64,000 nucleotides of DNA from a virus (IMGVR_UViG_3300037499_000265:63506-127505); one strand, 5' to 3'; numbered from the stretch's first letter, positions 19,531 to 25,919 are shown. Notes: generated by a model from the letters alone, not told the origin. Translations and numbers: made by a program.

Positions 19531-19559
19531 TAGACACTTGGATGAGAGTCTGATACTGT
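19531..19559 (+). promoter_or_regulatory. Sigma70-type promoter for the glycan cassette (TAGACA-N17-TACTGT)
   Basis: Matches the window-wide promoter family. It is followed by a leader stem TCCACCTCGAT/ATCGAGGTGGA (19568-19619). Confidence 0.75.
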
Positions 19560-19660
19560 AGGAGTTGTCCACCTCGATCAGAACGGCTCCGACATCCATG
19601 GAGGGCGCATCGAGGTGGAACCAAGATGCGGCTGTATCAGGAAACAGCTAGGCTGTCATC

Positions 19661-20329
19661 GTGACCTTCGACGCCTCAGACATCACGATCGCCGTCCTCA
19701 CCGGACGCCGGCCCGAACTCCTACGACGAACCCTCAACGCTCTACCAGACTGGCTCTGGACTAGCGCACACACCGTCGTACTCCACAACTCTGGAGATGG
19801 CGAGACCACCGAGGTGTTGGATGACTACAAGATCGACCTGAAATACACCAATCTGGACGGTCTGTGGTCGATCGGGCGAGCATCGTCGCACATCTTCCAG
19901 ATCGCCCAAGCCGAGGCACGGCCGTTCACGATGTACGTCCAGGACGACTGGAAGTGCAAAGATCAATCTTCCGAGTGGTTGATCACGGCACTACAGATCC
20001 TCGACGACGACCCACACGTCGGAGCGGTCCGGCTTCGTCGCACAGACGAACGAACCATGGTCAACAGTATGGCTCGAGGAAAGACCGTCACCTGGTCGCA
20101 GCACGAGGGGTTCCGAGTCTCACGTCAAGCAGTGTGGTGCCTGAACCCATTCCTCATGCGTACCCACGAACTGATCTTCCCGATCGAGGACGAAAGAGAC
20201 GGCATGCGAAAGTTCAACGACTGGGGTCAGTCTGTGGCCCAGCTCACGCCCGGCGTGTTCGCACACATCGGGTACGGGGGAAAGAGCCTGCGTCAGAAGG
20301 TGGCGAATGATCGACTACTCCGTCCTTGA
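19661..20329 (+). CDS. GT-A fold (GT2-like) glycosyltransferase
   Basis: ITIAVLTGRRPELLRRTL, TMYVQDDW (DxD-like), WCLNPFL, FAHIG. Confidence 0.8.
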   Translation: MTFDASDITIAVLTGRRPELLRRTLNALPDWLWTSAHTVVLHNSGDGETTEVLDDYKIDLKYTNLDGLWSIGRASSHIFQIAQAEARPFTMYVQDDWKCKDQSSEWLITALQILDDDPHVGAVRLRRTDERTMVNSMARGKTVTWSQHEGFRVSRQAVWCLNPFLMRTHELIFPIEDERDGMRKFNDWGQSVAQLTPGVFAHIGYGGKSLRQKVANDRLLRP

Positions 20330-20939
20330 GATCCCACGGCAGATACATCGCATCTGGCTCGACGAGCCCATGCCGAAGATGTTCAGCGTCTACCTGAATG
20401 CCTGGCAGGTCCTGCACCCAGGATGGTGGATCCAGGACTGGATGACCTCTCGGTCACTGCCACCGCTGCACAACCAGGACTTGTTCAACCGGGCGTCGGA
20501 GTTCTACCCGAACGACTGGAAGAGGTTCCAGGCCGACATCGTCCGGCTCGAACTGCTTTGGCACTACGGCGGCGTCTACGCTGACACCGATATCGAGCCG
20601 TTCCGCAACCTCGGCCCGCTGCTTGACGAGCGAGTCTGCCTGGTCGGCCGGTCTCCACAGGTCTGGCGCGGCGTGCACTCGATCACCAATGCCTTCATGG
20701 CCACAGTCCCCAGGCATCCGTTCATCGAGGCCACCATCGAGCGTCTTCCCGAGTCTGTTCGCAGGCGTCGAGGACACCCACTGGCGCGATCCGCAGGACC
20801 GTGGCACCTGAACCGTGTCTACGACTCAGGTAGCTGGCCGGACGTCACTGTCCTAGAACCGGATGAACTCTATGATGGAACCTATTTCCGGCATTACTGG
20901 AACAACAAGCTACGCAAGCAGGGACGGGGTCTCGGATGA
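20307..20939 (+). CDS. DXD sugar-binding glycosyltransferase (OCH1/GT32-like)
   Basis: IPRQIHRIW, ADIVRLELLWHYGGVYADTDIEP, ITNAFMA, AGPWHL. Confidence 0.9.
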   Translation: MIDYSVLEIPRQIHRIWLDEPMPKMFSVYLNAWQVLHPGWWIQDWMTSRSLPPLHNQDLFNRASEFYPNDWKRFQADIVRLELLWHYGGVYADTDIEPFRNLGPLLDERVCLVGRSPQVWRGVHSITNAFMATVPRHPFIEATIERLPESVRRRRGHPLARSAGPWHLNRVYDSGSWPDVTVLEPDELYDGTYFRHYWNNKLRKQGRGLG

Positions 20940-23586: not shown

Positions 23587-24374
23587 TGACAATTCTCGTC
23601 GTGATACCGACCTACCGGACCCCACAGCCCATGCTGGACCGCTGCGTCGACTCGCTGCTGAACCAGACGTTCACCGACATCTGCCTGTTGGTGCTCGGCG
23701 ATGGCGAGCAGCCTGTCCTCAACGTCACAGATCCACGCGTCATCGTTCACACGCTGACCGAGAACCGAGGCCGCTACTTCGCCGATGCGGTGGCCCAGCG
23801 AGCCACCCCGTTCGAGTGGTACGCCCCACACGACGCCGACGACTGGTCCGAACGCGACCGACTGGACGATCTGTGGCAGTACCGAAAGACCGGGGTCGTC
23901 TGGTCCGACCATATCAACCACACCGCCAGCGGCTCGGTCGTCAACCGGGCGGTCTTCCCGCGAGCACTCAAGCCCGTCGGACCGTTCCAGAAGAGGCAGG
24001 GCTGCCACCTCGGGCTCTATCGGATCGACCGGTTGCGCGCCACCGGGATGTACCACCCTGACTTCCGGGTGCACTACGACTCGATGCATAACTCACTGGT
24101 CAAGATGACCGGACCAGTCGCCGTCAGTCCGCGAGCGCTCTACCATCGGGTCAAGTGGGCCGGCTCGCTCACCAAGGCTCCAAAGACCAGACTGTCAGGC
24201 CCCTACCGCCGGGCAGCCGCCGAGCAGTGTCGTCCGATCTACAGTGCGTCCTATGCGGCCTACAAGGACAACGAGCCAGAGAAGATCGCCGGAATCGTGA
24301 CCGCCAGCATCGACTCACGAACGCTCGAGGCCGTCGAGTTCGAGGTCGAACGACTGCGCAAGGAACTGTCATGA
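23586..24374 (+). CDS. GT2-family glycosyltransferase
   Basis: True start at ATG 23586 (TGATG overlap). ILVVIPTYR...RCVDSLLNQT...ENRGRYFA...PHDADDWS. Confidence 0.88.
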   Translation: MTILVVIPTYRTPQPMLDRCVDSLLNQTFTDICLLVLGDGEQPVLNVTDPRVIVHTLTENRGRYFADAVAQRATPFEWYAPHDADDWSERDRLDDLWQYRKTGVVWSDHINHTASGSVVNRAVFPRALKPVGPFQKRQGCHLGLYRIDRLRATGMYHPDFRVHYDSMHNSLVKMTGPVAVSPRALYHRVKWAGSLTKAPKTRLSGPYRRAAAEQCRPIYSASYAAYKDNEPEKIAGIVTASIDSRTLEAVEFEVERLRKELS

Positions 24375-24676
24375 TCGGGAAGGGTGATCTCTACGTCGCT
24401 CTCATCGGCCTAGCCCTAGACGGCTTCATTGTCATGATCGTGACCGGAACTCCGCCGACCTTGCTCATCATGGTCGCTGCTCTGTTGGTGTGGATCGTGA
24501 TCGAAAAGGCAGTCTACAAGAGCTACCGTCGACTCAGACCCATCGTTACGCGAGCTGAACCATCGGAACTGAGCGTCTACGACACCAAGGCGCTGCACAT
24601 CCTCTTCAAGATCTGTCCGCCGCGGAACAAACGTGCCTGGCGGTGGCAGATCGAACGAAAGGTCGAACCGAGATGA
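24371..24676 (+). CDS. Small two-TM membrane protein
   Basis: MIGKGDLYVALIGLALDGFIVMIVTGTPPTLLIMVAALLVWIVI; ATGA-coupled. Confidence 0.65.
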   Translation: MIGKGDLYVALIGLALDGFIVMIVTGTPPTLLIMVAALLVWIVIEKAVYKSYRRLRPIVTRAEPSELSVYDTKALHILFKICPPRNKRAWRWQIERKVEPR

Positions 24677-24939
24677 CACCACCTCAGCCTCCTGAACCTC
24701 CCGGGCCGGCCCGACGGCCAAAGGACTTTATCCTTCCCACCAGGGCGACTCCACGCAGGAAACGGACCAGGCTTCGTCCCACCCAGAGAGGGGTGACCGG
24801 GAACTGCCGGTCTATCGACCCGGCCGGGCGACAGTGTCAGCTACCAAGCGAACACAGGGGTGTTCACCGGGTTCGCTACCCCGGCTCTCGAGGCCCCTTC
24901 GTCTATACCTGGGGCGACGAGAGTGAGGAAGAGGCGTGA
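24673..24939 (+). CDS. Small basic Pro/Arg-rich protein with a C..C..H..H motif
   Basis: ATGA-coupled on both sides; NCRSIDPAGRQCQLPSEHRGVH. Confidence 0.55.
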   Translation: MTPPQPPEPPGPARRPKDFILPTRATPRRKRTRLRPTQRGVTGNCRSIDPAGRQCQLPSEHRGVHRVRYPGSRGPFVYTWGDESEEEA

Positions 24940-25919
24940 TCGTCGACGCGTCGGCCGCCGAAAGTCACTTCCTCGCTCACCTGGCACCGATCTGGCGAGC
25001 ACTCGAGAAAGACGAGCGAGGCACGCTGTACCTTCCCAACGATCACAAGGTGCAAAGACTCGCCGACGAGCTCGGCCTGGACTATACACCGGGCTTCGGG
25101 ATCCCATCGGCGTCGACGGCGATCCGGCTGGTAGCGGCCTGGAGCGATCTGCGGAGAGTCCGGACACACGGGCGCCCGATCGTGTTCGCCGAGCACGGAG
25201 CCGGATTCACCTTCGGCACGAGACACGAGTCGTACGCCGGCGGCCGAGGGCGAGAGACGGTGTCATTGTTCTTGTGCCCGAACGAGCAGGTCAAAGAGGT
25301 CAACAAGACTCACTACCCTGCCATCCCAGCCGAGGTGGTCGGATGCCCGAAGCTGGACGACCTCGAGGCCCGCTCGCCGGTTGGACGGACGGTATGCGTG
25401 GCATTCCACTGGCCCGGTCGGGCTTGTCCTGAGACGAACTGGGCCTTCCCAGAGTATCGCAACGTGTTGCGTGACCTGGCTCGGAACGCTGACTGCGAGG
25501 TGATCGGACATGGCCATCCGAGAGTCTGGCCGCGACTGGAATCGCTGTACCGCCGACTTGGCATCGAGCCCGTGCAGTCCTTCGACGAGGCGCTGAATCG
25601 CTGTGACATCTATGTGAACGACAGCAGTTCGACAATCTACGAAGCCGCTGCCGCTGGACGAGGTGTGGTGGTGATGAACTCCCGGTTCTACCGTCGAGAC
25701 GTCAGCCACGGCTTGAGGTTCTGGGACCACATCCCCGGCCCACAGGTCGACTCAGCGCCTAGACTGGCGCCAACTGTGAAGCTGATGCTCAATGGCTGGT
25801 GGAGAGGAGGCTGGGAGACCGCACGGCAGGACGCCGTGATCGCTGCCTACGGACCCTGGGGCATCGATGGCGGAGCCGCCAAACGTGCGGTTGAAGCTAT
25901 CCGTAGACATCTTGGCTAA
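24936..25919 (+). CDS. GT-B fold, CDP-glycerol glycerophosphotransferase (TagF)-like protein
   Basis: VFAEHG, LFLCPNE, VVGCPKLD, VAFHW, GHGHPR, YVNDSSSTIYEAAAAGRGVVVMN. Confidence 0.75.
   Translation: MIVDASAAESHFLAHLAPIWRALEKDERGTLYLPNDHKVQRLADELGLDYTPGFGIPSASTAIRLVAAWSDLRRVRTHGRPIVFAEHGAGFTFGTRHESYAGGRGRETVSLFLCPNEQVKEVNKTHYPAIPAEVVGCPKLDDLEARSPVGRTVCVAFHWPGRACPETNWAFPEYRNVLRDLARNADCEVIGHGHPRVWPRLESLYRRLGIEPVQSFDEALNRCDIYVNDSSSTIYEAAAAGRGVVVMNSRFYRRDVSHGLRFWDHIPGPQVDSAPRLAPTVKLMLNGWWRGGWETARQDAVIAAYGPWGIDGGAAKRAVEAIRRHLG

Follow-up and report, generated by a model that had tools for sequence, protein, structure and literature searches.

The viral DNA considered here (IMGVR_UViG_3300037499_000265:63506-127505) is a window of 64,000 nucleotides (nt), the second half of a complete 127,505-bp virus listed in IMG/VR with direct terminal repeats; the GC content is about 62%. 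From 19661 to 25919 its + strand carries a cassette of ten open reading frames (ORFs), g1 to g10, which probably encodes a virion-protein glycosylation system of the kind known from phage Che8, in enlarged form. It comprises four GT-A-type glycosyltransferases (g1, g2, g6, and g7), one TagF-like GT-B enzyme (g10), an FkbM methyltransferase (g4), a methyltransferase-kinase fusion (g3), and three small ORFs (g5, g8, and g9). The product would most likely be a methylated, possibly phosphate-containing sugar chain borne on the glycine-serine (Gly-Ser) ends of the capsid, tail-tube, and neck proteins, with, possibly, a phosphodiester or methyl-phosphate component. Virion glycosylation was first described in 2023 in a few mycobacteriophages, and the known systems of this type are those of Che8 (gp108-110), Corndog, and Myrna (Freeman et al., 2023, as conveyed by PMC12619734, PMC12363180, and PMC11256854).

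Four consecutive virion genes, all on the minus strand, encode proteins with a common Gly-Ser end, and each is a predicted acceptor. The major capsid protein (11589-13316; phrog_777, 4e-79) ends in APSGS and is 49% identical to Sixama gp81, which ends in GS. Next to it, p245 (10799-11536), a virion-module protein ending in GVIGS for which the ESM Atlas returned only unnamed viral clusters, is the orthologue of Sixama gp82 (phrog_779, ending in STGS). The major tail (tube) protein (10145-10786; phrog_792) ends in VVVGS and is 61% identical to Sixama gp83 (ending in VSGS), while the head-tail adaptor (9410-10060; phrog_783, 1.3e-29) ends in ARQGS and is the orthologue of Sixama gp84 (ending in WTGS). 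Genome-wide, this end is found in only 7 of the 376 ORFs of at least 100 amino acids (aa). The Sixama orthologues gp81-84, which are 35–61% identical to the proteins described here, all end in Gly-Ser with differing preceding residues, and Sixama also encodes a phrog_854 enzyme, gp92. As for the capsid protein itself, its first ~180 residues, ahead of the HK97-like part, are rich in Ala, Pro, Thr, Glu, and Asp, and presumably form a scaffold or delta domain that the protease cuts off.

The same two residues close the Che8 capsid protein gp6 and tail protein gp11 and are missing from gp5 and gp7-10; the capsid and tail proteins of Tweety have Gly-Ser ends as in Che8. PMC12619734 reports mycobacteriophage glycans at the C-termini of capsid and tail-tube subunits, and PMC12363180 reports Che8 gp110 and Corndog gp38 as essential for capsid glycosylation. 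The cassette holds a relative of gp110: g6 (236 aa; 22876-23586, + strand) matches phrog_854 (“glucosyltransferase”) at 1.8e-18, and Che8 gp110 at 4e-8 in a blastp search of a small database. Tweety gp108 (7e-101) and Sixama gp92 both lie in phrog_854, and Che8 gp110 is 90% identical to Tweety gp108; on these matches, g6 is a member of the Che8 gp110 family. Along with the Gly-Ser ends found here and on Che8 gp6 and gp11, this membership supports the cytoplasmic virion-protein acceptor that had been proposed as probable in an earlier interpretation of the same DNA (hereafter the sequence-only reading), and so does the behavior of the tag and the enzymes in other viruses.

These other viruses are represented by loci, mostly from IMG/VR, that were compared in this analysis and are designated by L-numbers (L004, etc.). 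Counts were made over the 80 best viral loci of the g10 family, for ORFs of at least 150 aa and with the expectation derived from composition. Gly-Ser ends close 89 of the 1111 ORFs lying on the same strand as the g10 homologue (8% vs. 0.55% expected, p ~3e-71), and 4 of the 793 on the opposite strand. At least one Gly-Ser ORF is present at 49 loci and at least two at 25, and in twelve cases such an ORF stops no more than 300 nt upstream of the g10 homologue, whose usual neighbors are terminase, portal, capsid, and tape-measure genes. The tagged proteins that were checked include major head proteins of phrog_1328, phrog_2263, phrog_10, and PF05065, one protease-capsid fusion, one phrog_779 protein, and some with no PHROG match. 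In three capsid clusters, all 36 members have a final Ser that follows Gly, Ala, Thr, or Ser, and Ser is likewise the last residue of every member in four of the six other tag-bearing clusters. Of 12 proteins checked in the GenBank phage Rctr41k, just two have a Gly-Ser end, namely the capsid-protease protein and the major tail protein.

The idea that g6 would be the sole enzyme linked to the tag was not supported, because 78 of these 80 loci have no g6-family gene within 10 kb (the other two do); the only recurrent sugar enzyme there is a putative rhamnosyltransferase of PF11316, found at 19 loci (e.g., L014, L017, and L042). Homologues of g3, for which a single-protein scan of viral contigs gave no match and an alignment-based search then gave loci, were found in 23 viral loci, a g2-type enzyme being present in every one, a g6-type enzyme in most, and an FkbM enzyme in many. 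Many of these 23 have major head or tail genes whose products end in Gly-Ser, some directly upstream of g3. The tag thus goes with two enzyme families that are unrelated to each other, and the capsid proteins concerned belong to at least five PHROG families. The g10 family and the g2-g3-g6 module each travel with it, and the present phage has both.

The cassette is compact, with seven of its nine ORF junctions overlapping by 1–34 nt and the remaining two being gaps of 20 and 4 nt; the sequence-only reading, which had described nine mostly coupled ORFs, was right about the coupling and one short in its count. It had also credited the cassette with its own promoter of host-sigma type, which is confirmed as a sigma-70-like TAGACA-N17-TACTGT with an extended -10 TG in the spacer (19531-19559, + strand). 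With one mismatch allowed, GACA-N17-TACTGT has 14 matches in the window vs. 2.05 expected. The genome holds 11 exact copies, 10 of them on the + strand, and those within the window are all on the + strand, with none on the minus strand of the structural genes. The form specific to this phage is T(T/A)GACA-N14-TGnTACTGT, with sites in the window at 19533, 25906, 26006, 38423, 41083, 50126, 52772, 57998, and 62238. A generic scan for consensus promoters and terminators was uninformative (2 sites vs. 1.9 expected, 0 on the + strand). Megablast of the cassette DNA against GenBank phages gave no match. Since no sugar-nucleotide synthesis gene was found in the whole genome, the sugar donors must come from the host, and the earlier description of the cassette as self-contained was too strong. 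In a hydropathy scan, hydrophobic segments were found among the cassette proteins only in g8, and all of the enzymes look soluble; as had been claimed, there is no flippase among them.

All of the glycosyltransferase fold and family assignments made beforehand were borne out by Pfam, PHROG, or AlphaFold2 (AF2) models, the models giving a GT-A fold for g1 and a GT-B fold for g10. The first gene, g1 (222 aa; 19661-20329, + strand), is a GT-A-fold candidate with an invariant DDW motif and six homologues found. It matches no Pfam or PHROG family, and a profile search of the PDB gave nothing useful; its AF2 model (predicted local distance difference test score, pLDDT, of 72), searched with Foldseek, finds GT-A enzymes at 1e-7, SpsA, POMGnT1, and TarS among them. 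The second, g2 (210 aa; 20307-20939, + strand), is a GT32/Och1-type DXD glycosyltransferase carrying a DTD motif (Gly_transf_sug PF04488, 5.9e-11). Further downstream, g7 (~262 aa; 23586-24374, + strand) is a GT2 glycosyltransferase (PF00535, 2.1e-8); it is the sole GT2 match in the genome and is conserved in L004, L005, and L006, the three closest relatives.

The last gene, g10 (327 aa; 24936-25919, + strand), encodes the TagF-like GT-B enzyme, with invariant EHG (H87) and GHGHP (H192 and H194) motifs. It has at least 865 homologues, most of them with a precomputed PF04464 match, and 35 of the 42 aligned family members match PF04464 (best 5.7e-13). In its C-terminal domain, the family profile matches Cps3D (5.4e-4) and also TarL, the conserved His-Pro (HP) region included. 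The AF2 model (pLDDT 95) has a GT-B fold, the Z scores being 20–21 for UDP-N-acetylglucosamine (UDP-GlcNAc) 2-epimerases, 20.4 for TagF (3l7i; root-mean-square deviation 3.7 over 300 aligned residues), 20.2 for NeuC, 19.3 for Cps3D, and 18.7 for TarL. Both H87 of EHG and H194 of HP are invariant in the 42 family sequences; H194 aligns with the histidine region of TarL and Cps3D, and the mapping of H87 is presumptive. We take the catalytic histidines of TagF to be H444 and H584. A phmmer search of the PDB with g10 gave nothing useful, and a structure search of BFVD returned only generic GT-B matches (template modeling score, TM, of at most 0.58). Relatives number 291 in IMG/VR and one among GenBank phages (Rctr41k), and no paper in the library searched ties TagF-like enzymes to phage capsids.

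Could the cassette, or at least g10 together with g7 and g8, then act on the host wall instead? The enzymes would remodel a wall glycopolymer, whether teichoic-acid-like or another that is lipid-linked, from the cytoplasmic face, host exporters would finish the work, and the outcome would be to block superinfection or to aid release. The matches of g10 relatives to the teichoic-acid polymerase family PF04464 and to Cps3D and TarL speak for this, as do a promoter of the host-sigma, early/middle kind and the presence of a small membrane protein, g8 (101 aa; 24371-24676, + strand; GC content at third codon positions 0.72), with a two-helix hydrophobic hairpin at residues 5–51 in the hydropathy scan. 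However, g8 has no counterpart in L004, L005, or L006, and there is neither a polyprenyl-phosphate transferase nor a flippase nor any membrane-anchored enzyme, for which reasons the envelope is an unlikely target. Nor would a role in the wall explain why the g10 family sits in head modules beside Gly-Ser capsid genes in dozens of unrelated viruses, and we consider such remodeling very unlikely.

The two methyltransferases also turned out as the sequence-only reading had described them. The first belongs to g3 (308 aa; 20936-21862, + strand), which joins a WbdD-like S-adenosylmethionine methyltransferase (residues 1–185) to a RibK-fold/DUF120 kinase-like domain (residues 190–305); the Pfam matches are Methyltransf_23 and CTP-dep_RFKase/DUF120 (PF01982; 5.2e-16, 59 bits vs. 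a cut-off of 25). Against the PDB, the C-terminal part of the family profile matches archaeal RibK (3cta, 5e-16) and MJ0056 (2p3m, 3e-15), and the RibK Gly-rich loop and PxxG(S/T)LN motif are retained in the family. The N-terminal part matches E. coli O9a WbdD at 2.4e-8 (profile positions 3–184 vs. WbdD residues 29–223), the next methyltransferase following at 1.7e-4. Assignment of g3 as a riboflavin kinase was tried and rejected, riboflavin being an unlikely substrate because the domain is fused to a glycan methyltransferase, because the fusion is confined to phage glycosylation modules, and because g3 misses the cut-off of the NCBIfam riboflavin-kinase equivalog NF040694 (43.9 bits vs. 168). 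The fusion occurs in ~40 clusters, and the only named genome that carries it is that of Streptomyces aidingensis, in a region that has a viral entry of 88 kb in IMG/VR. At 37% identity, the g3 methyltransferase resembles Tweety gp103 and LittleE gp17, which adjoin a small APH-type kinase and glycosyltransferases. The pairing of kinase and methyltransferase is thus conserved while the kinase fold differs, which suggests a role for g3 in capping or phospho-methylation. In E. coli, WbdD adds a phosphate to the terminal mannose of the O9a polymer and then a methyl group to that phosphate, whereupon polymerization stops (PMC3482155). The second methyltransferase, g4 (233 aa; 21859-22560, + strand), is of the FkbM family (PF05050, 1.3e-17; TIGR01444, 89 bits vs. 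a cut-off of 37.7).

Phage glycosyltransferases are classically DNA-modifying, according to PMC12619734, and the enzymes of the cassette, all soluble and under an expression signal of early/middle type, could in principle hypermodify the phage DNA against restriction, with glycosylated hydroxymethyl-pyrimidines as the product. But PF00303, the family of ThyA-like hydroxymethylases, is unmatched in the complete genome, whereas control genomes match it, and no cassette enzyme matched a DNA glucosyltransferase family; these two results make DNA an unlikely target. In BFVD, the DNA alpha-glucosyltransferases were only weak, generic GT-B matches (TM at most 0.45), g6 belongs to the family needed for glycosylation of the Che8 capsid, and the Gly-Ser pattern has no place in such a scheme, which we regard as extremely improbable. 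With the virion proteins supported, DNA and the envelope, both kept open as targets by the sequence-only reading, are thus the options to recede.

Two small ORFs complete the cassette. The product of g5 (96 aa; 22581-22871, + strand) is a small conserved viral protein, 47–52% identical to its counterparts in L106 and L107, whose genes lie immediately 5′ of the g3 homologue. It is possibly a cupin-like beta-barrel: its named neighbors in the ESM Atlas, which serve as a lead only, are pirin and mannose-6-phosphate-isomerase cupins (TM 0.61–0.67), and its best matches are unnamed viral clusters (TM 0.74–0.76). Near the other end, g9 (98 aa; 24643-24939, + strand) encodes a basic Pro/Arg-rich protein whose C-terminal part is 79% identical in L004 and whose codon-position GC pattern is atypical.

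For the virion-glycosylation system that we favor, the following course of events can be proposed. Host RNA polymerase would transcribe the ten genes from the extended -10, sigma-70-type promoter, and the capsid protein, p245, the tail-tube protein, and the adaptor would serve as cytoplasmic substrates of the soluble enzymes. The acceptor would be the C-terminal Gly-Ser common to these four proteins, most likely the terminal serine. The chain would be started by g6, the gp110-family GT-A enzyme, by g10, the TagF-like GT-B enzyme, or by both, and then extended by g1, g2, and g7 with sugar nucleotides from the host. O-methylation of the sugars would fall to g4, while the RibK-fold domain of g3 would phosphorylate the terminal sugar and its WbdD-like domain would methylate the sugar or the phosphate, giving the chain a cap like the one that WbdD puts on the E. 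coli O9a O-antigen. What the analysis establishes are the enzyme folds and families, the presence of the Gly-Ser tags, and the joint occurrence of genes and tags; in this scheme we infer the acceptor chemistry, the order of the steps, the methyl-phosphate cap, and any transfer of polyol-phosphate by g10.

A number of points weigh against this proposal. The virus is uncultured and known here from sequence alone, and the promoter of the cassette is of a type common to its non-structural genes, not to the late operon. We know of no precedent for a RibK-fold domain acting as a sugar kinase. As for g10, it falls below every Pfam threshold when taken by itself, and its fold is as near to UDP-GlcNAc 2-epimerases as to TagF. 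The exact attachment residue in Che8, which may be the terminal serine, is known here only second-hand, through citing papers. L106 and L107 have a g2-g3-g6 module between their protease and capsid genes, yet their capsid and tube proteins are without a Gly-Ser end, and LittleE has related genes with a capsid protein ending in PTFA. The tag is therefore not universal. These same three viruses, along with the fact that the link between enzymes and tag is one of co-occurrence, favor another explanation, in which the Gly-Ser ends would serve structure or assembly independently of the cassette, which itself would glycosylate some other phage or host protein, or a small molecule. Such an explanation must nonetheless account for a tag that follows two unrelated enzyme families and the capsids of at least five PHROG families, and that is confined to proteins reported as glycosylated in Che8; we find it highly improbable.

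Between the capsid and connector genes of LittleE (L113, cluster J) are encoded a kinase, a fusion of methyltransferase and glycosyltransferase, and three further glycosyltransferases. The tail protein of this phage ends in IGLS, and a different tag or site may be used there.

Among the closest relatives of the present virus, L004, L005, and L006 have a matching cassette layout, and the enzyme set is modular. L004, whose g10 is 71% identical, is without g3 and has Methyltransf_24 and Methyltransf_25 proteins. Its cassette also holds a 196-aa ORF (8366-8956) with a weak, sub-threshold Sulfotransfer_3 match, and L005 has a similar ORF of 204 aa (7084-7698), in a cassette that is likewise without g3; these sulfotransferase-like ORFs may provide an alternative anionic modification, with sulfate in place of phosphate. 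The cassette of L006 contains only a GT2 enzyme, one unknown ORF, and g10. Such modularity would fit a surface glycan under diversifying selection.

As to the wider genome, the portal protein is ~45% identical to the portals of the 100–122-kb Gordonia phages GMA2, Sixama, Forza, and Phendrix, and the wider portal family is found in actinobacteriophages. From 19624 downwards, the minus strand encodes in order a MuF-like protein, the portal, a 682-aa protein, the protease, the major capsid protein, p245, the major tail protein, and the head-tail adaptor. The cassette and the MuF gene are divergently transcribed, and the cassette is followed by a + strand array of transfer RNA (tRNA) genes and then by minus strand genes again; with minus strand genes thus on both sides of it, the cassette forms an inverted island in the structural region. 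The array, directly 3′ of the cassette (26188-27371, + strand), comprises seven genes (Gln, Pro, Glu, Tyr, Glu, Ser, and Ser), with two copies of the promoter motif just 5′ of it (25904-25932 and 26004-26032). A 246-aa ORF at 26096-26836 (minus strand) was rejected as a gene and is probably spurious, because tRNA genes overlap it. Elsewhere, ARAGORN reports a tRNA-like gene at 39963-40037 (+ strand) whose anticodon, gaac, has four bases and to which it assigns no amino acid. In its C-terminal part, the 682-aa head-module protein (14338-16386, minus strand) gives matches to phrog_2659 (“RNA ligase”) as well as to a portion of a PHROG annotated as protease, and an orthologue is conserved in L004, L005, and L006.

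Virion glycosylation affects the recognition of therapeutic phages by antibodies. Here the combination of a Gly-Ser tag and phage glycosyltransferases recurs in a distant actinophage of 127 kb whose set of enzymes is much richer. In hundreds of uncultured viruses the TagF-like family accompanies genes for capsid proteins ending in Ser, which yields a simple sequence rule for predicting coated virions, and the g10 family and the tag would form a defined enzyme-peptide pair. The methyltransferase-RibK fusion, for its part, suggests that the kinase-plus-methyltransferase chemistry that caps and terminates O-antigens has been reassembled around another kinase fold. A bolder proposal, tentative and rather doubtful, is that the g10 family is a widespread and undescribed class of phage enzymes that would transfer a polyol- or sugar-phosphate to the C-terminal serine of capsid and tail proteins, the fusion being an analogue of WbdD that adds a methyl-phosphate cap. 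Under the same doubtful proposal, x-(Gly/Ala/Thr/Ser)-Ser-COOH would be the recognition tag and the virion would bear a teichoic-acid-like phosphodiester decoration.

Compared with known systems, the cassette differs from a Gtr-type serotype-conversion cluster in having no flippase and no bactoprenol-linked or integral-membrane glycosyltransferase, the 101-aa g8 being its only hydrophobic product. With archaeal RibK (MJ0056, PF01982), g3 shares a clear domain match, the Gly-rich loop, and the PxxG(S/T)LN motif, but it lies far under the equivalog cut-off and is set apart by its methyltransferase partner and its confinement to phage glycosylation modules. With TagF, TarL, and Cps3D (PF04464), g10 shares the GT-B fold, the profile matches to Cps3D and TarL, and the PF04464 matches of most family members; it consists, however, of a 327-aa catalytic core only, with neither a membrane-binding nor an extra N-terminal domain, and the genomic partners of its family are capsid genes, not wall-polymer genes. 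Like WbdD of E. coli O9a (PMC3482155), g3 joins a homologous methyltransferase domain to a kinase-type domain in a setting of glycan assembly. Contrary to WbdD, whose kinase is of the eukaryotic-like protein kinase type, its kinase domain is a RibK/DUF120 beta-barrel, the protein ends at residue 308 without the C-terminal coiled coil, and its acceptor would be a protein-linked glycan instead of a polyprenol-linked one.

The closest likeness is to the Che8-type systems, with which the cassette has in common soluble phage-encoded glycosyltransferases, a gp110-family enzyme (g6), Gly-Ser ends on the capsid and tail-tube proteins, and a WbdD-like methyltransferase that also occurs in phages of clusters F and J (Tweety gp103 and LittleE gp17), where it stands beside a kinase. 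It differs from them in having ten genes instead of three or four, four tagged virion proteins predicted instead of two, and a location as an inverted island in the structural region, followed by the tRNA array. The present cassette has two enzyme types not reported for Che8: a TagF-like GT-B enzyme, which is found in only one GenBank phage record, and a kinase in the form of a RibK-fold domain fused to the methyltransferase, where the known systems have a separate kinase of APH type.

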